From assembly GCA_037142675.1 (NCBI GenBank), contig JBAXAF010000005.1:1-57758 (forward strand): a stretch of DNA of 57,758 bases, given 5' to 3'. Below the pieces are notes generated by a model. The model saw only the letters and a program-made list of their open reading frames with translations, was not told the DNA's origin and made no database searches. Shown piece after piece: positions 123-57,575 of this stretch. The stretch comes from Candidatus Berkelbacteria bacterium (GTDB lineage: Bacteria > Patescibacteriota > UBA1384 > XYA2-FULL-43-10 > CAINNR01). A program made the translations under genes and the position numbers. The first letter of the stretch is position 1. Every line of letters starts with the position of its first letter.

Positions 123-737
123 ATGGATTGGCTACTGTGGAGCGGTTCACCCGTTCCGGCAAAGCAGATATATCTGCTGCGGAAGTTCGAGACTAACGAG
201 ATGGAGGAAGGAAGCCGAGCTTTTGCTCGCGTCTATGAGTACACTGCCGGTCCTGGTCTCGATCTGGCGAAAACGAACGGTGTCATCAGCTTCGTCCACA
301 CCGAGAGCGGAGGCTTCTTCGCTGAGGAGGCCACCAGCGATGACTACGACTTTGTCAACGCGCACGAAAACGAGGGCTGGAAGTTCCTGGCCTTCGACCT
401 GACAGACCCGGCATGGATCGAGAAGATCACCAGCACCTTCGAGGCCATGAAAAGCCGCGGCGGCAAGTGGCAGTATGAACTGTACGAACGGATGACACAG
501 GTCGCCGTCGTCCGTTCGCCCAACCCCGACTACGTGCCGCACGTAGAAGTATCAGTCACTTCCCATGCAGTAGACGCCGACGATTGGAACATCTGTCCGC
601 GGACCGGTCAGCCGCACCGCTTCATCAAACCTACACCCCAAATACCGATCATCGGCCTGCCGTACGGAATCAACGCCAGCTGCATCTGCTCCACCTGTCA
701 TGGCATCTTTTACACCAGCAAACTGTCCGGCAAGTAG
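123..737 (+). CDS. hypothetical protein, GC-rich cassette 1 (204 aa)
   Basis: Open frame with GC3-rich codons, opposite to all neighbours. AAAGGGG lies 11 nt before ATG 123, and ATG 201 is an alternative start. C-terminal Cys/His cluster CICSTCH. No family recognised. Confidence 0.55.
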   Translation: MDWLLWSGSPVPAKQIYLLRKFETNEMEEGSRAFARVYEYTAGPGLDLAKTNGVISFVHTESGGFFAEEATSDDYDFVNAHENEGWKFLAFDLTDPAWIEKITSTFEAMKSRGGKWQYELYERMTQVAVVRSPNPDYVPHVEVSVTSHAVDADDWNICPRTGQPHRFIKPTPQIPIIGLPYGINASCICSTCHGIFYTSKLSGK

Positions 738-3929: not shown

Positions 3930-5741
3930 TTATTTCTTAGATCTATTTCTCTGGGTTGCGTCTAAAATCTTTTTTCGCAAACGGAGTGCCGTCGGCGTTA
4001 CTTCCAAGAGTTCGTCATCTTCCAAAAAGTCGATGCATTGCTCGAGTGATAATATTGTCGGCGGCGTTAAAACAGTAATCATATCTGAACTTGCTGCCCG
4101 GACATTTGTCAGCTGCTTTTCTTTGGTGACATTAATTTCCATGTCGCGCTCTGTTGGGGTCATCCCAACAATCATACCGGTATAAACTTCGGTTTGTGGC
4201 GGAATAAATGTAATGCCTCGTTGCTGAGCAATATTTAGTCCGTAAGCCACAGTTTTTCCCGGACCAAAAGCGATTAAAACCCCGGTTCGGCTTTTCGGCA
4301 AAGCTGAGCCAACTTTTTCGTAGCGCAAAAACAGTGAGTTAATAACCGCCGTACCCTTGGTTGCAGTCATTAAAACATTTCGCAAACCCAAGGTCCCGCG
4401 GGTTGGAATTTCAAAAACCAATCTGGTGGTACCATCAGGATTTTCATTTTGGTGGGTAAGCATTCCCCGGCGTCGAGAAATCTCGCCGATTGTTGCTTGA
4501 GCAAAATCGCTCTTAACATCAATAGTTAATTCTTCAACCGGTTCTGAAAGAATGCCATTAACTTCTTTGGTAATAACTTCCGGTTTTCCAACCTGAAGTT
4601 CGTAGTCTTCACGTCGCAAGTTTTCAATAAATACTGACAAGTGGAGTTCGCCGCGACCGGATAAAATGTAATTTCCGTCTTGTGAATCGTCAAGTCGCAT
4701 CGAAACATTGGTCTCTAGCTCTTTCTTGATACGGTCGAGTAGTTGCCTGGCGGTAACAAATTTCCCTTCGCGGCCAGCGAACGGTGAGGTGTTGGCATAA
4801 ATGGAAATCCTCATTGTTGGCTCTTCAATTGCTGGGGCCGAGAGCGCTTCCGGGCAGAGTGGATCGGCAACGGTGTAGCCTATTGTGGCATTTTTAATGC
4901 CGGCGATTGAAACAATATCGCCTGATTCAGCCTGCGTTACTTCAACTTTTTTCATTCCAGAATTTAAGTAAATTTTTTCGATTTTTCCGTTCCCAACAAC
5001 TCCGTTAGCATCTAGCAAAATTACCGGTATTCCAGCTTTTGCAATACCATTTTTAATTTTACCAACGGCGTATTTACCCATAAAACTATCGTAATCGAGA
5101 GCGGAAACCAACATTTGGAATGGTTGATCGTCATTTTTCTCCGGAGCCGGAATATATTCAATAATCGCATCCAAGATCGGAGCTAGATCAGCTTCTTCGT
5201 TAAAGTCTGATGGCATGTCTTTCCAGGCTTTTCCATCACGTCCCAACGCGTAGTAAATTGGGAACTCCAATTGCTCGTCGGTTTGTGCCATATCTAGGAA
5301 TAGATCGTATGTGTTATTGATAGTTTTTTGTAAATCAGCGTTTTGTTTATCAATTTTATTGATCACGACGATAATTTTCAGTCCGAGCTCAAAAGCTTTT
5401 TTTAGAACAAATTTAGTTTGCGGCATTGGCCCTTCTTGAGCGTCAATAACTAAAATAGCGCCCTCAGCCATATTTAGAGTTCGCTCAACTTCACCACCAA
5501 AATCCGCATGCCCCGGAGTATCAATAATATTAATTTTGACGCCCTTGTAATTGATCGCGGTGTTTTTTGCCAAAATGGTAATTCCGCGCTCACGTTCCTG
5601 ATCATTTGAATCCAAAATTAGATCTTGATCCATGTAAGCTTCATTATCGCGAAAAGTTTTAGATTGCTTTAAAAAGCCATCAACAAGGGTGGTTTTACCG
5701 TGATCGACGTGAGCGATAATTGCAACGTTACGCAGTTCCAT
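3930..5741 (-). CDS. typA: translational GTPase TypA/BipA
   Basis: G1 AHVDHGKTT, G3 DTPGHADF, G4 NKID. EF-G-like domains, 603 aa. Confidence 0.95.
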   Translation of the reverse strand: MELRNVAIIAHVDHGKTTLVDGFLKQSKTFRDNEAYMDQDLILDSNDQERERGITILAKNTAINYKGVKINIIDTPGHADFGGEVERTLNMAEGAILVIDAQEGPMPQTKFVLKKAFELGLKIIVVINKIDKQNADLQKTINNTYDLFLDMAQTDEQLEFPIYYALGRDGKAWKDMPSDFNEEADLAPILDAIIEYIPAPEKNDDQPFQMLVSALDYDSFMGKYAVGKIKNGIAKAGIPVILLDANGVVGNGKIEKIYLNSGMKKVEVTQAESGDIVSIAGIKNATIGYTVADPLCPEALSAPAIEEPTMRISIYANTSPFAGREGKFVTARQLLDRIKKELETNVSMRLDDSQDGNYILSGRGELHLSVFIENLRREDYELQVGKPEVITKEVNGILSEPVEELTIDVKSDFAQATIGEISRRRGMLTHQNENPDGTTRLVFEIPTRGTLGLRNVLMTATKGTAVINSLFLRYEKVGSALPKSRTGVLIAFGPGKTVAYGLNIAQQRGITFIPPQTEVYTGMIVGMTPTERDMEINVTKEKQLTNVRAASSDMITVLTPPTILSLEQCIDFLEDDELLEVTPTALRLRKKILDATQRNRSKK

Positions 5742-5889: not shown

Positions 5890-6111
5890 TTAGGCTTTTT
5901 TCTTATTACCCCAAATGTAGATATAGAGAATTTCCAAAATTCCTAACGTATTCACAATCATGAGGATTATAAACCAGGCAAGATCTTTGTTCCTGGCCGC
6001 TTTCCAAAGGGCAACGCCTTTCCAGGGAATCTCCCATAGCGCCAAGATTCCAATCACAACTGGTAACCATGTACTAATGGTTGTTATTTGATGCCCATCT
6101 GATGAAAACAT
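5890..6111 (-). CDS. small two-TM membrane protein (73 aa)
   Basis: Two hydrophobic helices flank WKGVALWKAARNKD. It lies 47 nt downstream of the heliorhodopsin gene. Confidence 0.55.
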   Translation of the reverse strand: MFSSDGHQITTISTWLPVVIGILALWEIPWKGVALWKAARNKDLAWFIILMIVNTLGILEILYIYIWGNKKKA

Positions 6112-6158
6112 TTATTCTCCTTGGCTATTCGCTATTAGTTATGCGTTATTAGTTAATA

Positions 6159-6929
6159 TCACATCGGCCGTAATGTGCCGGCAAAAACCTGCCAAGCCAA
6201 AAGCGATTTAGCAACTAGTGACAAAATAATGTAAGCACGTTCTCCGTAAAGATAATCCTTCCATGGACCGACTTTTTTGTATTGCAAAACTTGGTTAATG
6301 GCAAAACAGTTGAAGAAAAGAAATATTGAAAAATATATCCAGTATACAAAAGTTGGCGCATGATTATTAGCATCACCTGAGCCAAACAAGTATAGACCGA
6401 TAACAACCCAAGGAGCAATACCAGCAATACAACCGAAGATGAATGAAGTCCAGTCGGTTTTGGTCGTGCTTTGATTGTGGAGTTCCATCATCCAGCCAAA
6501 AAGAATCATCATTGCGTTCAAGACGAAGATTGGAATTAAAGAAGCAATGTCATAGACTCCAACCAGCATGGCAATTGCAATCATCATGATCGAAGAAGAA
6601 AAGGAGTATTCAATCCAACGGCCATAGTTGGCTCCCTTGGCCAAATTTCGATTGTACCAATCATTAGCAACCGTACCGATAACAAGATGAGCCAAAGCTG
6701 AAAGAAAAAGAAATATGGCAATCATTGGGCCAATCTTAAGTGAAAACAAAGTTGACTGAACGGGCTGTAGCGTTCTTGTAACAACATCAAACTTCAAATA
6801 GTGGCTCATCACCGGCAAACTGAAACCACTAGATAGCCAAAGCATGGCAACGCCCTGACCAAAATGAAGTAGTGCCATCCACAAATTAAAATTCTTGAGA
6901 CCCTTTAACTTTTCTTCCTGACTTTTCAT
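6159..6929 (-). CDS. heliorhodopsin (7-TM retinal protein, 256 aa)
   Basis: Motifs typical of heliorhodopsins as I recall them: LKNFN, RWIEYSFSSS (Glu107), ILFGW, FGCIAGIAPW, FLFFN, LQYK and GERAYIILSLVAKS (Lys241, codon 6207-6209), plus His22 and His81. Strong GGGAGG SD. Confidence 0.85.
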   Translation of the reverse strand: MKSQEEKLKGLKNFNLWMALLHFGQGVAMLWLSSGFSLPVMSHYLKFDVVTRTLQPVQSTLFSLKIGPMIAIFLFLSALAHLVIGTVANDWYNRNLAKGANYGRWIEYSFSSSIMMIAIAMLVGVYDIASLIPIFVLNAMMILFGWMMELHNQSTTKTDWTSFIFGCIAGIAPWVVIGLYLFGSGDANNHAPTFVYWIYFSIFLFFNCFAINQVLQYKKVGPWKDYLYGERAYIILSLVAKSLLAWQVFAGTLRPM

Positions 6930-6955
6930 TTTTCCTCCCTAAATAATATTTCTAT

Positions 6956-7312
6956 TTAATTTTTCCACAAACCGTGAATATTGCAATAAGCACGGGCGAC
7001 CTTAATATCGCTATTGCAGAATTCTGCTTCTGGTTTCCCGCCAACTTGCAAATTCTTGCGACAAACATCAGCACCTTCCAAAACTTCAATCCACTCTATG
7101 TGATGCTCTGCTTCCATTGGGTGTGGAACTGAGCCAACTAACACTCGCTGATCTTCAACCACTGGTTTGTGTTTTTCCATTCCCTCTTCGCCAGATTTTT
7201 CAACTAATTTTTCCATTGGCTTTCCACAACAAACTAATTCACCATCACTGGCATGAACCAGCTCAACAATGTTGCCACAAACATTACACTTGTAAATTCC
7301 ATTTAATTTCAT
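6956..7312 (-). CDS. dfx: desulfoferrodoxin-type superoxide reductase
   Basis: N-terminal desulforedoxin site CNVCGN..CCGKPM. Centre II ligands EKHKP, HPME..H and CNIHGLW. AAAGGAG SD before ATG 7312 (the ORF track starts 6 codons earlier). Confidence 0.85.
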   Translation of the reverse strand: MKLNGIYKCNVCGNIVELVHASDGELVCCGKPMEKLVEKSGEEGMEKHKPVVEDQRVLVGSVPHPMEAEHHIEWIEVLEGADVCRKNLQVGGKPEAEFCNSDIKVARAYCNIHGLWKN

Positions 7313-7336
7313 GCTTCTCCTTTTGAACATATTATA

Positions 7337-7894
7337 TCAAAATAATTTTCGATAAACATGACAGTATGGGTTACCGCCAGTTTTTTGATAATATTTTTGA
7401 TGATAATCATCGGCCGGCCAAAAATCAGTTGCTTTTTCTACCAGCGTTGCAATTTTCATGCCTTTTTCTTCTAAAATTTTAATCAGTGAAAGTGCGATCT
7501 TTTTTTGTTCATTATTCAAATAAAAAATTCCCGACCGATATTGCGAACCAATATCCGGCCCTTGTCCGCCAACCTGTGTTGGATCATGGGTTTCAAAAAA
7601 AACTTTCGCTAATTGTTCGTATGATACTTTTTCCGGGTCGAAAATCACTTCAATTGATTCGGCATGCCCGGTTTTTCCGCTTGATACCTGCTCGTAGCTC
7701 GGATTTTCAACTTTTCCTCCACAATATCCGACTGTGGTTTTTTCCACGCCACTAACCTGGTCGAAGTAATGTTGCGTACCCCAAAAACAACCGGAAGCAA
7801 AAATCGCTCGCTGGGTTTCATTGTTTTTTTTGTCTTCAACCATAATCTGATTATACTTGACTTGACTATTTTTTGCATCGTCAAATTTAAACAT
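7337..7894 (-). CDS. msrA: peptide methionine-S-sulfoxide reductase MsrA
   Basis: GCFWG active site and GGxGPDxGxQYRS. The start is uncertain: ATG 7894 abuts a terminator and has no SD, and an in-frame ATG at 7843 is an alternative. Confidence 0.85.
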   Translation of the reverse strand: MFKFDDAKNSQVKYNQIMVEDKKNNETQRAIFASGCFWGTQHYFDQVSGVEKTTVGYCGGKVENPSYEQVSSGKTGHAESIEVIFDPEKVSYEQLAKVFFETHDPTQVGGQGPDIGSQYRSGIFYLNNEQKKIALSLIKILEEKGMKIATLVEKATDFWPADDYHQKYYQKTGGNPYCHVYRKLF

Positions 7895-7921
7895 AAAAAA
7901 TGGGAGGCAAACGCACTCCCA
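7895..7921 (-). terminator. intrinsic terminator of GC-rich cassette 2
   Basis: Minus strand TGGGAG-N9-CTCCCA followed by T6. It ends immediately before the msrA ATG. Confidence 0.6.
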
Positions 7922-7927
7922 AACTGT

Positions 7928-8398
7928 TCAATGCTTGTAAAGTCCCTGGCATTGCGGATCATATGGCCCACCGTAGCCCTCAAACTCGAGGGAGGCGCCA
8001 CTCACCAGCGGCAACAGATCCTTCGACTGCCCGATGTAGAAGTCTATCGGGCCACGAGTCTCACCTGGCTTTAGCGCCGGGCGGTCCATGCTTATGCCGA
8101 AGATTGTGGTGGAATAGATGATTTTCTCCCCCTTGAAGAGGCGAAGATGCAAGTTGGCGTAGATGCAGGGTACCTTGCCAATGTTCTTCATGGAGACACG
8201 AAGACCCACATTGGGCCCGTAGTGCCGACGATCAGTAGTGAACAACTTGGCACCTAGGATCGCGATGTGCGGACGTTTGGGGCTGACGGCGGCCGTTTTG
8301 GTCTGGGTTTGAATCTGTACATACCCCAGTCGATCAGGGCCGGCCATGGCGGCCGAAACCAGCATCAGCAACGCCGCAATAATGGTTGATTGCTTCAC
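7928..8398 (-). CDS. hypothetical secreted protein, GC-rich cassette 2 (156 aa)
   Basis: GTG start 9 nt after GAGGAG. Signal-peptide-like N-terminus MKQSTIIAALLMLVSAAMA. GC3-rich codons. No family recognised. Confidence 0.6.
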   Translation of the reverse strand: MKQSTIIAALLMLVSAAMAGPDRLGYVQIQTQTKTAAVSPKRPHIAILGAKLFTTDRRHYGPNVGLRVSMKNIGKVPCIYANLHLRLFKGEKIIYSTTIFGISMDRPALKPGETRGPIDFYIGQSKDLLPLVSGASLEFEGYGGPYDPQCQGLYKH

Positions 8399-8512: not shown

Positions 8513-8884
8513 TTACTTTTTGGACTGATCGTCCGGCACAAATTTAATCGATAACGAATTTACGCAATGACGAAGATTTTTTTTCGTCAAACGCTCTCCT
8601 TCAAAAACATGGCCCAAGTGTGCCTGGCAGTTGGCGCAAACAATTTCTTTCCGTGATCCATCGGCATCCGGAATTCGCAAAACTGATCCCGGAATTTCGT
8701 CATCAAAACTCGGCCAACCACAACCGGATTTAAGCTTTACCTCCGAAGTATAGAGTGGATTTCCACAGCGCCTGCAAACATAAGTTCCTTGTTGAAAAAA
8801 CTCATTATACTTACCAGAAAACGGCGCCTCTGTGCCTTTGTTTTCGATAATATTTTTTTCTTCGGCTGTTAAATCATCTTTCAT
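8513..8884 (-). CDS. msrB: peptide methionine-R-sulfoxide reductase MsrB
   Basis: Two CxxC zinc pairs (CRRCGNPL, CANCQAHLGH), GCGWPSF and catalytic RHCVNS. Confidence 0.9.
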   Translation of the reverse strand: MKDDLTAEEKNIIENKGTEAPFSGKYNEFFQQGTYVCRRCGNPLYTSEVKLKSGCGWPSFDDEIPGSVLRIPDADGSRKEIVCANCQAHLGHVFEGERLTKKNLRHCVNSLSIKFVPDDQSKK

Positions 8885-8939
8885 ACTTTAATTGTAGCTA
8901 AATACTACACAATTGCAATGGACGAACAACAAATAAGTG

Positions 8940-8968: not shown

Positions 8969-8997
8969 TTAGATGTCCCTGAAAGGAGGGATTGGTT

Positions 8998-9804
8998 ATG
9001 TCTGATAAGACAGACGCTGGAAGCAGCCAGCCCTCTTTGGCCATTTTGGTTAGGGTTGGCGGAGAACTTACCGGAACAGAAACTCCTCCGCAAGACGCGG
9101 GCTATGAGCTGATCATCATCGCAGGGGTCGAAGAGAACTGGCTTGTCCATCGTTCAGAAGCAGGCGCTCTCGAGTTCCTGACTAAGGCCCTGGGTGCCGA
9201 TCGCTTCAAGCTAAACCGCGGAGTCTACGAAATTACCGTGCCGTTCGGCATGAAGGGCGCCTGGGTAGGATCCGGCAGTAGAGTCGCCAACTTTCTGGCT
9301 AGTTGTCTAGGAGCCATGCTAGTGATCGGCGAGGATCGCGATTGGATTGTCAAGCGGTGTAGTCGAATCAAGGCTGAACGGCACGAGCAGTTGAGCCTAC
9401 GTAACAGACGGCAACTTGTCTATCACAGTATCATTTCACCCGAGAGCCTACCACACGAGCCTAACTCCCAAGAGATTCACGACACGCTAATCGAATTGAT
9501 GAACCGTGAAACTCCTGATAGAGTTAGGCAGTTTATGGAAGCCTGCGGCTGGTTCTTCTCTGCTGGCACTGTTAGTGGGCTCGGCGTGTTGATTGTCGTC
9601 GAACAGGGCTTGTTCAAGCAATACCAAACCTGCTGCTTTAACCCGGCTCTGCCACCAAGCAAACACGAAGACAGGACGCCGGCAGCGATCACCAAGGCCG
9701 CAAATATCATTGCCCAGACAATGGGCACAGATGAACTGGAGACTCGATGGACCGAGCGACTCGAACAGTTGAAGTGGAGAAAACCCAAAGCGCCGCCCAG
9801 ATAG
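8998..9804 (+). CDS. hypothetical protein, GC-rich cassette 3 (268 aa)
   Basis: AGGAGG 8984-8989 lies 8 nt before ATG 8998 (the ORF track starts at TTG 8992). GC3-rich codons. No family recognised. Confidence 0.6.
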   Translation: MSDKTDAGSSQPSLAILVRVGGELTGTETPPQDAGYELIIIAGVEENWLVHRSEAGALEFLTKALGADRFKLNRGVYEITVPFGMKGAWVGSGSRVANFLASCLGAMLVIGEDRDWIVKRCSRIKAERHEQLSLRNRRQLVYHSIISPESLPHEPNSQEIHDTLIELMNRETPDRVRQFMEACGWFFSAGTVSGLGVLIVVEQGLFKQYQTCCFNPALPPSKHEDRTPAAITKAANIIAQTMGTDELETRWTERLEQLKWRKPKAPPR

Positions 9805-26401: not shown

Positions 26402-26430
26402 TTGACATATTTTCAATTTTATGATAGAAT
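26402..26430 (+). promoter_or_regulatory. promoter of GC-rich cassette 4, unit 1
   Basis: TTGACA 26402-26407, 17-nt spacer, TGa-TAGAAT extended -10 ending at 26430. Confidence 0.6.
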
Positions 26431-26468
26431 TTAGCCATTCTGTCCACACTTTGATTGGGAGGGCTACC

Positions 26469-27023
26469 ATGCCACCGAAAATTGGCGTGCCTGAGCTGAC
26501 CTTGGAGCAAATCGTCCGCGAGTACAACAGATTCAGCCTCCATGATGGCTGGATCGCCAACCCCCAGCCAAACACCACACCAGAGGGACACCACGGCATT
26601 AGGGTCATTGGTGGCTCCTGGTCGTATACCGATGCGTGGGTTGATGGGCGTGATAGCCCGATCATCTTTGATGAGGACGTATTCATGGGGCAGACGATTC
26701 TCTCATGCGGCAAATGGATGGCTATGTACATGACATACCATGGCCGCATGGACGCGATCGGGACCGAGATGGTCAAACTCGCGCTGAGATACCAGTACGA
26801 ACTCGGCATTTTCAACGGAGGTCGCGGTCCGGCTACGTTCGAAGACGGCGACCTCCGCTACATGTACGAGCTGACCACCGATCACCCCAACAAGGACATG
26901 GGAGTCGTCGGTTTCTCTGGCAGGGAGGCGGTTTACGACAAAGATGACCACTGTCATGCACAGTGTTTCATCCAAGGAGGGGTCCTGATCCCCGGCTTCG
27001 CTGACTTTCAGCCGACGCGCTAG
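26469..27023 (+). CDS. hypothetical protein, cassette 4 gene A (184 aa; possibly DUF5680-like)
   Basis: GGGAGGG SD 5 nt before ATG 26469. GC3-rich codons. WMAMYMTYHGRM, RGPATFEDGDLRYMYE and C-terminal IQGGVL recall DUF5680 proteins; this is from memory and unverified. Confidence 0.6.
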   Translation: MPPKIGVPELTLEQIVREYNRFSLHDGWIANPQPNTTPEGHHGIRVIGGSWSYTDAWVDGRDSPIIFDEDVFMGQTILSCGKWMAMYMTYHGRMDAIGTEMVKLALRYQYELGIFNGGRGPATFEDGDLRYMYELTTDHPNKDMGVVGFSGREAVYDKDDHCHAQCFIQGGVLIPGFADFQPTR

Positions 27024-27165: not shown

Positions 27166-27786
27166 GTGAGCATTCAAAGATTCTTCTGCCCGTTTCCGGC
27201 TCAACAGATCGCTTTCGTCCACGAACAGGTCGAGATCGCGCTCAATGACGTTTTGGTGCTGATCGACGACCCGTCTCGCTCCGGCGTCTACTGGTCACTT
27301 TCCAGTGGCACCGGCCGCATCTACTCAGTAATGATGGCGGGAGAGCCGCCAGACGAGAAGGTCCTGCGGTACAACGGCTTCGCCGTTGAGAAACCGACCC
27401 GTCTCGGACAGCACCCAGAGCACCTGACCAGCGACGAGAGCGCTGATCCAGATCCTGAGGCTGGTAAGTTCGGAGGAGCTTTCCGTCTCCATTGGCCGCC
27501 GATCACCGAAGAGGACCACGAGAAGAACATGCGCGATCGCGCGCAAGCCATCATCGGCGAGGCTCAGAGCTCCGTCTTCACGGACCGGCCCGTGATCATG
27601 GCCGTTTCCGGCTTGTCCCTCGCTCACCACGACAGTGCCGTCGGAATGCTAGCGCTGAAGCGGCTAGGGGTCATTACCGAAGACGACATCGGCACGCTTA
27701 TCAGGCGCACCGGCAACGACTTCTGGCCAATTGTGTACGACGAGTACACCACCATCATGGACCACCCAGAACTTTTCAGGCGCTAA
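27166..27786 (+). CDS. hypothetical protein, cassette 4 gene B (206 aa)
   Basis: GAGAGGA SD 10 nt before GTG 27166. GC3-rich codons. No family recognised. Confidence 0.6.
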   Translation: MSIQRFFCPFPAQQIAFVHEQVEIALNDVLVLIDDPSRSGVYWSLSSGTGRIYSVMMAGEPPDEKVLRYNGFAVEKPTRLGQHPEHLTSDESADPDPEAGKFGGAFRLHWPPITEEDHEKNMRDRAQAIIGEAQSSVFTDRPVIMAVSGLSLAHHDSAVGMLALKRLGVITEDDIGTLIRRTGNDFWPIVYDEYTTIMDHPELFRR

Positions 27787-31860: not shown

Positions 31861-32124
31861 TTGCGAAACTTACTATCTCGACTAATTGATCTATTTCGTC
31901 GCAAACCAAAACGGAAGCTTTCCGGACTCGAAGAGTTAGCGGAAATTCAGAAGCGAACACTTGAAGAATTCAAACGCATCTCTGACGGCAGAACAGTGTG
32001 GGACGAGCCAATGGACCGTCGTCGTTGTTCCGAACTGGGATATGACTACATCCCGTCTGCTGGTGCCAGCGAAACAGGGGTCCTTTCCGGCCACCGCCGT
32101 CATCGTCGTCCGCCGCCCAGCTAG
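31861..32124 (+). CDS. hypothetical small basic protein, cassette 5 gene B (87 aa)
   Basis: GAGGTGA SD 6 nt before TTG 31861. The leader GTGATTAGCT is shared with cassette 2. No family recognised. Confidence 0.45.
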   Translation: MRNLLSRLIDLFRRKPKRKLSGLEELAEIQKRTLEEFKRISDGRTVWDEPMDRRRCSELGYDYIPSAGASETGVLSGHRRHRRPPPS

Positions 32125-32142
32125 CCGCTGGCGGTTTTTTTT
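32113..32142 (+). terminator. terminator of cassette 5, unit 2
   Basis: CCGCCCAGC-TAGCC-GCTGGCGG followed by T8. The arms are identical to 31781-31802, and the T-run overlaps the dinB stop codon (32141-32143). Confidence 0.65.
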
Positions 32143-33370
32143 AATGCCGAATGTCGTACCTTGGTCTTCCGAAGGGGATTCTGTCTGGTGCGGAATCACG
32201 TGCGGCGAACACTGATGCCGGGTGAATGAAGCCAACACCAAAATCATCATCAATTTTATCCATGGCCTCAGAAATTTTTCGTGATTTTTCAATTTCCGGC
32301 AGAATTGATATTTGCGTGATACGAGATGATGTTAAATTAAAAGCCGAAACGGAAACATAACTTGGGCTGCAGTACCAACTACAATCTTTCAACATTTCAA
32401 AAACGTTTGACGTAAAACTATGGGTGTCAGAAAAAGGGGAGACACGCCTCCCTTTTTTGAAGCCTGGGCCGTTGTAAAAAGAAATTGCCACAAAAATTCC
32501 ACCGGCTAAAAAGCCGTCAGCCCGCAACCGAGAAGCGGCTTTATATATTAATTTTCTAAGAACTGATTTCGCACCAGCAGGTGATCGGTGATCCGGAGCC
32601 AAAACGTGTGAATGACCGATGGTTTTGGTCGATGTCGTATAATCATCAACTTCATAACCTCGCAAACGGTAGTGCCAAAGCCGGCCACCGTGGTTCAAGA
32701 CTGTCCGCAACTTCGGCAAATCCGACTGAAAAAATTCGAGGGGAGAGCTGATTCCCGATTTTACCAAACGGAACTCAAGTGCATGATTTATTCCGGTAAT
32801 ATCGAGCAATTTTATGCTACTGTAAAACTCTTCCAAATTTTTAAGTTGAACTATTATTAAGCCATCGGGCTTTTTGCGCTCCCCCGCCATTTTAGCCAAA
32901 AATCGGTTCGGCCCAATACCAACCGAACAAGTCAGAAAATCGCCAACTTCCGAGAGAATTTTCTCCTTTATCGCCTGTCCCAACCTGGTTGCCGCCGCTA
33001 AATTTTGTTCGTAGCTTGCTAAATTGATAACAAATTCATCAATTGAAAGAACTTGGTAATGCGGAGTAAAACTTTCGATAACTTTGCGTATTTCTTTATG
33101 ATAAATCATATAAAGTGCCGGCCGTGATTCGATAATTTTAATGTCACGGTAAAGTCTCCTCGCCTCTTTGACTAGACAGCCGGTTTTAATGCCCAAGTTC
33201 TTCGCTTCTCTAGACGCAGCAATAATGCAACCAGTGCCGCCGACATATGGCGCGATACCAACAGGGAGACCACGCAAAGTCGGCTGAACTTGCTGCTCAA
33301 CCGACGCAAAAAAAGAGTTCATGTCTAAAAATAATGTCTGAAAATCTTTTGGTTTGTCGACAATGCTCAT
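32141..33370 (-). CDS. dinB: Y-family DNA polymerase IV
   Basis: LFLDMNSFFASVEQ (catalytic Asp), SIDEFVI, little-finger region, 409 aa. Confidence 0.9.
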   Translation of the reverse strand: MSIVDKPKDFQTLFLDMNSFFASVEQQVQPTLRGLPVGIAPYVGGTGCIIAASREAKNLGIKTGCLVKEARRLYRDIKIIESRPALYMIYHKEIRKVIESFTPHYQVLSIDEFVINLASYEQNLAAATRLGQAIKEKILSEVGDFLTCSVGIGPNRFLAKMAGERKKPDGLIIVQLKNLEEFYSSIKLLDITGINHALEFRLVKSGISSPLEFFQSDLPKLRTVLNHGGRLWHYRLRGYEVDDYTTSTKTIGHSHVLAPDHRSPAGAKSVLRKLIYKAASRLRADGFLAGGIFVAISFYNGPGFKKGRRVSPFSDTHSFTSNVFEMLKDCSWYCSPSYVSVSAFNLTSSRITQISILPEIEKSRKISEAMDKIDDDFGVGFIHPASVFAARDSAPDRIPFGRPRYDIRH

Positions 33371-53763: not shown

Positions 53764-53851
53764 TGGTGCCCGAGATCGGAGTCGAACCGATACGGTTTTT
53801 AAGGCCAAAGGATTTTAAGTCCTTCGTGTCTACCAATTCCACCACTCGGGC
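53764..53851 (-). tRNA. tRNA-Leu (anticodon UAA), CCA encoded
   Basis: Cloverleaf by hand: acceptor GCCCGAG/CTCGGGC, anticodon stem AAGGA/TCCTT with loop CTTAAAA, long variable arm, T arm ATCGG-TTCGACT-CCGAT, A73-CCA. Confidence 0.9.
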
Positions 53852-57208: not shown

Positions 57209-57285
57209 TGGTGGGCGCTGGGGGATTCGAACCCGCGACCTACTCAGTGTAAATGAGTTGCTCTAACCAGCTGAGCTAAGCGCCC
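57209..57285 (-). tRNA. tRNA-Val (anticodon UAC), CCA encoded
   Basis: Acceptor GGGCGCT/AGCGCCC, anticodon stem ACTCA/TGAGT with loop TTTACAC, T loop TTCGAAT (one C-C mismatch in the T stem). Confidence 0.85.
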
Positions 57286-57488: not shown

Positions 57489-57575
57489 TGGTGGGCAGAA
57501 CAGGACTTGAACCTGCACGGCCTTGCGGCCACAGCCACCTCAAGGCTGCGTGTATACCAATTTCACCACCTGCCC
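57489..57575 (-). tRNA. tRNA-Leu (anticodon GAG), CCA encoded
   Basis: Acceptor GGGCAGG/TCTGCCC, anticodon stem CAGCC/GGCTG with loop TTGAGGT, long variable arm GGCCGCAAGGCC, T arm GCAGG-TTCAAGT-CCTGT. Confidence 0.9.

Follow-up and report, generated by a model that had tools for sequence, protein, structure and literature searches.

A superoxide reductase gene directly upstream of a heliorhodopsin gene in a narrow clade of Berkelbacteria-like bacteria

Heliorhodopsins (HeRs) are retinal proteins, some of which have been shown to bind and regulate the products of their operon neighbours. AbHeR acts in this way on glutamine synthetase (PMC9529153), TfHeR on the photolyase encoded beside it (PMC9769723), and OcHeR on the OmrDE ABC transporter encoded beside it (PMC11109279), and proton transport has been reported for a viral HeR (PMC9448325). 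A further HeR gene, found in a 57,758-nucleotide (nt) stretch of DNA from a Candidatus Berkelbacteria bacterium (contig JBAXAF010000005.1; hereafter the window), directly follows dfx, the gene of a two-iron (2Fe) superoxide reductase, also called desulfoferrodoxin (Dfx). The view, taken in a preliminary description of this locus, that little is known of the physiological outputs of HeRs has been partly overtaken by the studies just cited.

A role for HeRs against light-induced oxidative stress was proposed for monoderms from gene neighbourhood and metatranscriptome data (Bulzu et al. 2021, PMC8612252), and the proposal was repeated for bacteria of the Candidate Phyla Radiation (CPR) (Chiriac et al. 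2022, PMC9166423). The genes named in these papers are those of thioredoxin, peroxidase or peroxiredoxin, catalase, glutaredoxin, and glyoxalase. The first of them also describes fusions of a Zn-ribbon to HeR, and uses neither the word superoxide nor the word methionine (PMC8612252). The literature search found no paper pairing heliorhodopsin with desulfoferrodoxin, superoxide reductase or MsrA. Both the link between HeR and oxidative stress and the regulation of an operon neighbour by HeR are thus already published ideas, and superoxide reductase is a new candidate HeR partner.

The locus resembles the AbHeR, TfHeR, and OcHeR systems in that a canonical HeR gene lies on the same strand as the gene of a soluble enzyme, tens of nucleotides away and apparently under a common promoter; it resembles the TfHeR–photolyase pair additionally in that the enzyme handles damage that light worsens. 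It differs from them in the identity of the neighbour, here a 2Fe superoxide reductase gene next to that of MsrA, in its CPR host, and in its restriction to one narrow clade. With the oxidative-stress proposal (PMC8612252, PMC9166423) it shares a HeR placed beside genes for defence against reactive oxygen species and for repair, in a host expected to be sensitive to oxidants, whereas here the arrangement is a predicted bicistron and not an enrichment within 10 kb.

All genes of the cluster lie on the minus strand, and the reading frames and features of the preliminary description were all recovered at the positions it gave. In the order of transcription, with lengths in amino acids (aa), they are:

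8513–8884, minus strand: msrB, 123 aa, methionine-R-sulfoxide reductase (Pfam SelR, E 1e-41)
7928–8398, minus strand: ORFan, 156 aa, signal-peptide-like N-terminus, no Pfam match
7337–7843, minus strand: msrA, methionine-S-sulfoxide reductase (Pfam PMSR, PF01625, E 7e-63); likely start Met18 at 7843, longest open reading frame to 7894
6956–7312, minus strand: dfx, 118 aa, 2Fe superoxide reductase (Desulfoferrod_N and Desulfoferrodoxin); longest open reading frame to 7330
6159–6929, minus strand: HeR, 256 aa (Pfam Heliorhodopsin, PF18761, E 2.7e-103)
5890–6111, minus strand: DUF5652, 73-aa small membrane protein (Pfam PF18893, E 1e-23)
3930–5741, minus strand: typA/bipA, translational GTPase, the syntenic anchor of the locus

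The identification of the 256-aa protein as a heliorhodopsin, made beforehand from its residues, held when it was compared with the profile hidden Markov model, which it covers completely (positions 1–242 of 242). The Schiff-base lysine K241 stands in SLVAKS (S237-L-V-A-K241, an SxxxK motif) and the counterion E107 in RWIEYS; in the alignment with 48C12 they fall on K241 and E107, and the histidines H22 and H81 on H23 and H80. The closest solved structures are those of TaHeR from Thermoplasmatales archaeon SG8-52-1 (PDB 6is6, E 4e-80) and then of 48C12 (6su3, E 5e-62). The alignment with TaHeR spans residues 4–256, is broken by one 4-residue gap only, and shows the same Schiff-base lysine, counterion glutamate, and histidines, although the host in this case is bacterial (CPR) and the protein is known from its sequence only. 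Judged by these alignments, it is a genuine heliorhodopsin that carries every residue a retinal photoreceptor needs. Its topology is probably inverted, with a cytoplasmic N-terminus, given its near full-length alignment to two proteins of established topology, TaHeR and 48C12.

The product of dfx matches both desulfoferrodoxin domains (PF06397, E 2e-15; PF01880, E 1e-15) and the structure of desulfoferrodoxin in PDB entry 1DFX (E 3e-33). In the alignment with 1DFX, the N-terminal desulforedoxin-like FeCys4 centre is kept as KCNVCGN...VCCG (CxxC...CC), and the catalytic Fe(His)4Cys centre as MEKHKP, VPHPMEAEHH, and YCNIHG (EKH, HP..H, and CN.H), so that the protein is predicted to have both iron centres. 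The two-domain architecture and the conservation of all metal ligands are those of the sulfate-reducer desulfoferrodoxins, or class I (2Fe) superoxide reductases (1DFX, 2JI1). In sulfate reducers, dfx is typically grouped with rubredoxin and related redox genes. Neither rubredoxin nor rubredoxin reductase was recognised among the Pfam-scanned proteins of the window. The locus differs from sulfate-reducer dfx in its HeR and Msr neighbours, neither of which occurs near any of the remaining 79 Dfx loci surveyed.

The longest dfx reading frame begins at 7330, 6 nt past the msrA stop, and a second Met at 7312 lies 24 nt past it. The start at 7312 is preferred, because it is preceded by the ribosome-binding site AAAGGAGA and because gene calls in relatives share that Met; the 24 nt given earlier for the msrA–dfx interval is right if dfx starts there. 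The interval of 26 nt between the dfx stop and the HeR start is exact. The following signals were recognised in and around the cluster:

8891–8918, minus strand: promoter-like site of msrB, TTGCAA-16-TACAAT
7895–7920, minus strand: intrinsic terminator downstream of the ORFan, made up of hairpin GGGAGTGCGTTTGCCTCCC and a T run behind it (folding energy -13.5 kcal/mol, z -3.1)
7850–7855, minus strand: candidate msrA promoter, a TATAAT box 6 nt before the Met18 ATG, with no good -35 element
7354–7383, minus strand: terminator-like hairpin in the last msrA codons (-13.5 kcal/mol, z -3.4)
7331–7339, minus strand: extended -10 promoter-like motif before dfx, TGATATAAT, the TGA of which is the msrA stop codon
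5847–5875, minus strand: promoter-like site of typA, TTGACA-17-TACTAT, the downstream limit of the cluster

Ribosome-binding sites precede dfx (AAAGGAGA), HeR (GGGAGG), and DUF5652 (AAGGAG). No hairpin was found by folding or in the program's terminator list in the dfx–HeR gap, in the HeR–DUF5652 gap or after DUF5652. Since the dfx–HeR gap is short (26 nt here, 8–50 nt in relatives), contains a ribosome-binding site and lacks a terminator, dfx and HeR almost certainly share one transcript, as predicted from these signals. A promoter motif occurs at the same position in relatives, as TGCTATAAT in two of them (L081 and L085) and as TGTTATAAT in a third (L169); in L081 and L085, which are without msrA, the order is terminator, about 35 nt, TGCTATAAT, and dfx leader. 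The co-transcription of HeR with dfx that had been suggested is therefore supported by promoter, ribosome-binding site, and absence of a terminator, whereas that with msrA is weakened by the hairpin in the 3′ end of msrA and by the separate dfx promoter. This hairpin is possibly a weak terminator or an attenuator ahead of the dfx promoter, and read-through from msrA into dfx–HeR is possible but uncertain.

The clade to which the window belongs comprises, on a neighbour-joining tree of HeR proteins, ten sampled lineages with a HeR at least 79% identical to that of the window. The best matches reach 95% identity and come from metagenome-assembled genomes (MAGs) of Candidatus Berkelbacteria and other Patescibacteria/CPR. 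In all ten lineages HeR occupies the syntenic typA/ligA locus, and in six of them dfx lies directly upstream of it: the window, P0001 (95%), P0006 (82%), P0005 (81%), P0008, and P0009 (79%). The gaps between the two genes measure 8, 15, 20, 26, and 50 nt, with a GGAGG-type site every time. A hairpin directly 3′ of HeR was found in L169, L170, and L002, and in the first two of these it delimits a dfx–HeR bicistron. The genes around the pair change. Upstream of dfx, five kinds of neighbour occur, namely msrA (in the window only), the ORFan (P0001 and P0006), a 123-aa gene, a gene of 192 aa with an FNR-like reductase gene ahead of it (L174), and a DUF6591 gene; downstream of HeR there are three, namely DUF5652, a 602-aa B12/radical SAM gene (L085), and opposite-strand genes (L169 and L170). 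Further oxidative-stress genes collect there: three lineages have msrB, the window has msrA, and L174 has the FNR-like reductase gene. As far as these signals and comparisons go, dfx–HeR is a predicted two-gene transcription unit with its own extended -10 promoter, present in one narrow clade.

Some features of individual relatives deserve mention. The FNR-like NAD-binding reductase of L174 (P0008; 3227–3898) is encoded two genes upstream of dfx–HeR and is a possible electron supplier for superoxide reductase. The 602-aa B12-binding radical SAM gene (L085, 8801–10609; also L086–L088; P0006) lies on the same strand as HeR, 29 nt after it. Several of the sequences (L001, L003, L004, L009, L011, L042, and L046) are recorded as coming from the Lac Pavin water column (WC70L), groundwater or anaerobic digesters, places with little or no light in which a photoreceptor is unexpected.

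Modelled on the HeR–neighbour pairs that have been characterised, the best explanation of the locus, to which a probability of roughly 40% is given, is that HeR is a light sensor that modulates the co-encoded superoxide reductase. HeR would be a slow-cycling sensor, like other characterised bacterial heliorhodopsins, and would use retinal taken up from outside the cell. Its cytoplasmic loops would bind the soluble enzyme translated from the shared mRNA, superoxide reductase and possibly also MsrA, and binding under illumination would raise or localise the activity of that enzyme. Light would tell a fermentative anaerobe that it is exposed to oxygen and photo-oxidants, upon which superoxide removal and methionine repair would rise. 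This explanation is favoured by the retention of the pair in 6 of 10 lineages amid changing genes on either side, by the other oxidative-stress genes at the locus, by the published proposals on photo-oxidative stress (PMC8612252, PMC9166423), and by Msr genes that adjoin HeR elsewhere (L017, L042, L178/L179, and L177, where there is also an iron superoxide dismutase, Fe-SOD).

The same promoter evidence bears on co-expression without contact. The two proteins may simply be needed under the same condition, illuminated oxic water, or superoxide reductase and methionine-sulfoxide reductase may be made along with the opsin to protect the cell from photosensitisation by free or bound retinal, with HeR regulating no enzyme. 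A single promoter serves dfx and HeR, the cluster contains no regulator gene, and the promoter looks constitutive, with an extended -10 motif and no operator-like repeat noticed. All-trans-retinal is a photosensitiser. CPR bacteria are thought to scavenge retinal; rhodopsin-bearing Saccharibacteria are without blh and probably do so (PMC9296517). No retinal or carotenoid genes were found among the about 50 window proteins scanned, a result that agrees with the CPR work (PMC9296517) although it says little on the whole genome. Against co-expression alone stand the persistence of HeR without an adjacent dfx in three nested lineages and the fact that the characterised HeR–neighbour pairs all bind each other (PMC9529153, PMC9769723, PMC11109279). 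It is a serious alternative to the modulation of superoxide reductase by HeR but on the whole an unlikely one.

A second alternative is historical accident, according to which HeR landed in, or was passed down with, changeable DNA on the upstream side of typA, the genome being compact and nearly all its genes on one strand; its adjacency to dfx and msr would be meaningless, and it would act independently, possibly with partners encoded elsewhere. In a crude gene call, the minus strand holds 50 of the 58 genes of the window, together with all three tRNAs, and adjacent genes share one direction in 44 of 57 pairs (median gap 44 nt). Spacings of 24–47 nt are the default in this genome and are by themselves no evidence for an operon; co-directional spacing was for this reason rejected as an operon argument. 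The stretch from a 135-aa gene to HeR differs in almost every lineage of the clade. A 299-aa gene separates dfx from HeR in L002 (84%), and dfx is missing upstream of HeR in L001 (92%), L173/P0002, and L003; since the lineages without dfx are nested among those with it, the pair probably arose once and was lost repeatedly, so that Dfx was lost three times while HeR was retained.

The wider surveys speak for accident, too, and weigh against the modulation of superoxide reductase by HeR. In the survey from the HeR side, which took in 80 species-representative loci with HeRs 57–92% identical and a radius of 6 kb, Dfx was found within that radius in L002 only. From the Dfx side, a HeR occurs at 1 of the 80 nearest Dfx homologues, on metagenome contigs, and this locus (L089) is a contig of an already known relative. 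A Pfam scan of 86 putative HeR operon partners in 72 species showed no dominant family and no superoxide reductase, the top families being ABC transporter, DUF1295, HD_3, DUF2177, and Pyr_excise, and a published set of ten recurrent HeR neighbour groups includes no superoxide reductase and no Msr (PMC11109279). Heterogeneous partners fit the published description of HeR “promiscuity”. They vary even between near relatives: of two HeRs 76–77% identical to that of the window, one is followed by a response regulator and a histidine kinase (L171, 3634–6126), and the other adjoins a MazG-like gene and an FAD-dependent oxidoreductase, which comes after HeR and has a weak lycopene-cyclase-family match (L172, 5001–6792). 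Light is moreover scarce where many of the HeR-bearing relatives come from, as these are groundwater, digester, and deep-lake MAGs, and msrA is missing at this position in the nine other sampled lineages of the clade. A relation of the published Zn-ribbon–HeR fusions to the N-terminal domain of Dfx was also considered and dropped: an in-frame HeR extension of at least 25 residues that bears CxxC was found only once among the 80 HeR loci (L012, 46 residues).

The association of HeR with Msr genes was considered in the same surveys. MsrA or MsrB lies near HeR in 4 of the 80 HeR loci: in L017 the order is MsrA-MsrB-HeR, HeR being preceded by a hairpin and some 230 nt, in L042 a convergent MsrA is near HeR, and in L061 and L065 MsrB is 3.5 kb off on the opposite strand. 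The other 79 Dfx-anchored loci, used as controls, have none within 6 kb, and the difference is marginal (4/80 vs 0/79, one-sided Fisher p=0.06), which again counts against the proposed link. So does the biased route, a pairing of MsrA and HeR match lists, by which two further cases were found. In L178/L179, in an obg/rpoB context, the order is MsrA-95 nt-HeR. In L177 (4270–10751), which is sister to the window clade, it is Fe-SOD ... MsrB-MsrA-[small opposite-strand gene]-DUF7670-HeR, with the DUF7670 small membrane protein 35 nt before HeR and pyruvate kinase and a cytochrome-b5-like gene after it. L177 is thus a second, differently built oxidative-stress gene cluster beside a HeR. Msr genes adjoin HeR in at least four CPR contexts besides the window. 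In qualitative terms the Msr–HeR neighbourhood is recurrent, with three to five independent contexts, but it is statistically not established.

Three observations speak against accident. The dfx–HeR junction is tight, with a gap of 8–50 nt and a common promoter, in six lineages despite the turnover of the flanks; three or four different oxidative-stress genes gather at one site; and Msr–HeR adjacency recurs in unrelated genomic contexts. Accident is accordingly held to be somewhat unlikely, and both it and co-expression remain serious rivals. As for the linkage in related genomes, which the preliminary description had expected to recur, dfx–HeR holds within one clade (6/10) and is scarcely seen beyond it (1/80 from the Dfx side); the pair is one clade-specific event.

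The small membrane protein downstream of HeR had been put forward as a possible HeR partner, and a 73-aa protein is indeed encoded 47 nt past the HeR stop, with a match to DUF5652 (E 1e-23). As a dedicated transducer or partner it would recall the sensory rhodopsin–transducer pair SRII–HtrII. It follows HeR, with a ribosome-binding site and no hairpin, in the window and in L081, L174, L173, and L003, and it adjoins a HeR, in divergent orientation, in L014. Elsewhere it is parted from HeR, by the 602-aa radical SAM gene in L085 and by an opposite-strand gene and a terminator in L169 and L170, and stays directly upstream of typA in every lineage in which typA is visible, so that it appears to track typA and not HeR. 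It occurs near HeR in 3 of 80 loci, compared with 2 of 79 Dfx-anchored control loci, which is no enrichment. The protein consists essentially of two hydrophobic helices, matches PF18893 only, and contains no signalling domain; both the HtrII-type cytoplasmic signalling domain and the steady coupling to the rhodopsin gene of the SRII–HtrII type are lacking. A partnership with HeR is very improbable, and the suggestion is not upheld. The 148-nt spacer between DUF5652 and typA has no significant structure on folding.

The msrB gene, which had been placed one gene further up, does lie there, beyond the 156-aa ORFan. The intrinsic terminator fills the 33 nt from the ORFan to msrA. It was read from the sequence of this gap, being absent from the program's terminator list, and its hairpin sequence is identical in L081 and L085. 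Given this conserved terminator and its own promoter-like site, msrB is not expected on the dfx–HeR transcript, and its inclusion in the cluster has to be given up. The light-linked oxidative-stress module of the preliminary description is thereby reduced to the dfx–HeR pair, msrA being confined to the window, msrB cut off by the terminator, and DUF5652 staying with typA. In both msrB (TACAAT, within 8885–8896) and msrA from Met18 (TATAAT, within 7844–7855), a -10-like box on the minus strand ends 6 nt before the ATG; because of this and because they have no ribosome-binding site, their mRNAs look leaderless, unlike dfx, HeR, and DUF5652 with their strong GGAGG-type sites.

The active-site motif ASGCFWG of MsrA aligns with PDB entry 4gwb, in an alignment that starts at residue 27. 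The msrA segment is flanked by two copies of TATAAT (7331–7336 and 7850–7855), of which the relatives have one, a repeat compatible with insertion or deletion through a short repeat. With regard to gain or loss, the flanks are clear, but the middle 30 nt or so of the relatives' spacer are AT-rich and align ambiguously. The gene may have been added before dfx in this lineage or kept where the others lost it. In P0001 and P0006, msrB is found at the corresponding place. A search of 5.8 billion proteins found homologues of the ORFan in only 3 protein clusters, all in this clade and with 67–73% identity; its G+C content is 0.56 and its GC3 0.68, compared with about 0.40 for its neighbours.

The rest of the window is made up of housekeeping genes, among them ligA, L9, secA, def, three aminoacyl-tRNA synthetases, greA, mreBC, and PBP2. 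A scan of the window with Rfam found no riboswitch or regulatory RNA and only the three tRNAs. Mutually unrelated G+C-rich genes (GC 0.54–0.59, GC3 up to 0.74), including the ORFan, are scattered through this genome of about 40% GC, several of them on the otherwise nearly empty plus strand; they may be foreign acquisitions without amelioration, or be under an unusual constraint. These features are:

53764–53851, minus strand: tRNA (Rfam)
57209–57285, minus strand: tRNA (Rfam)
57489–57575, minus strand: tRNA (Rfam)
123–737, plus strand: G+C-rich gene, no Pfam match
7928–8398, minus strand: G+C-rich gene (the ORFan), no Pfam match
8992–9804, plus strand: G+C-rich gene, no Pfam match
26421–27023, plus strand: G+C-rich gene, no Pfam match
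27166–27786, plus strand: G+C-rich gene, no Pfam match
31936–32292, minus strand: possibly a further G+C-rich gene, no Pfam match

The purpose of HeRs is still debated, and it was by testing the enzyme encoded next door that the few answers to date were obtained. The dfx–HeR bicistron names a new candidate partner that is easily assayed, as superoxide reductase activity is simple to measure. If the link is only positional, it is a caution that operon-like spacing says little in compact, one-strand genomes. If HeR does modulate the enzyme, the locus would tie the published photo-oxidative-stress proposal to a specific enzyme, in CPR bacteria that offer few experimental handles. In its fullest form, which must be regarded as improbable, the light-activated HeR would bind the 2Fe superoxide reductase, and perhaps MsrA, and switch on or localise superoxide removal at the membrane of a fermentative, retinal-scavenging CPR bacterium for which light is an early warning of oxygen; if true, it would be the first case of an antioxidant enzyme gated by a photoreceptor.

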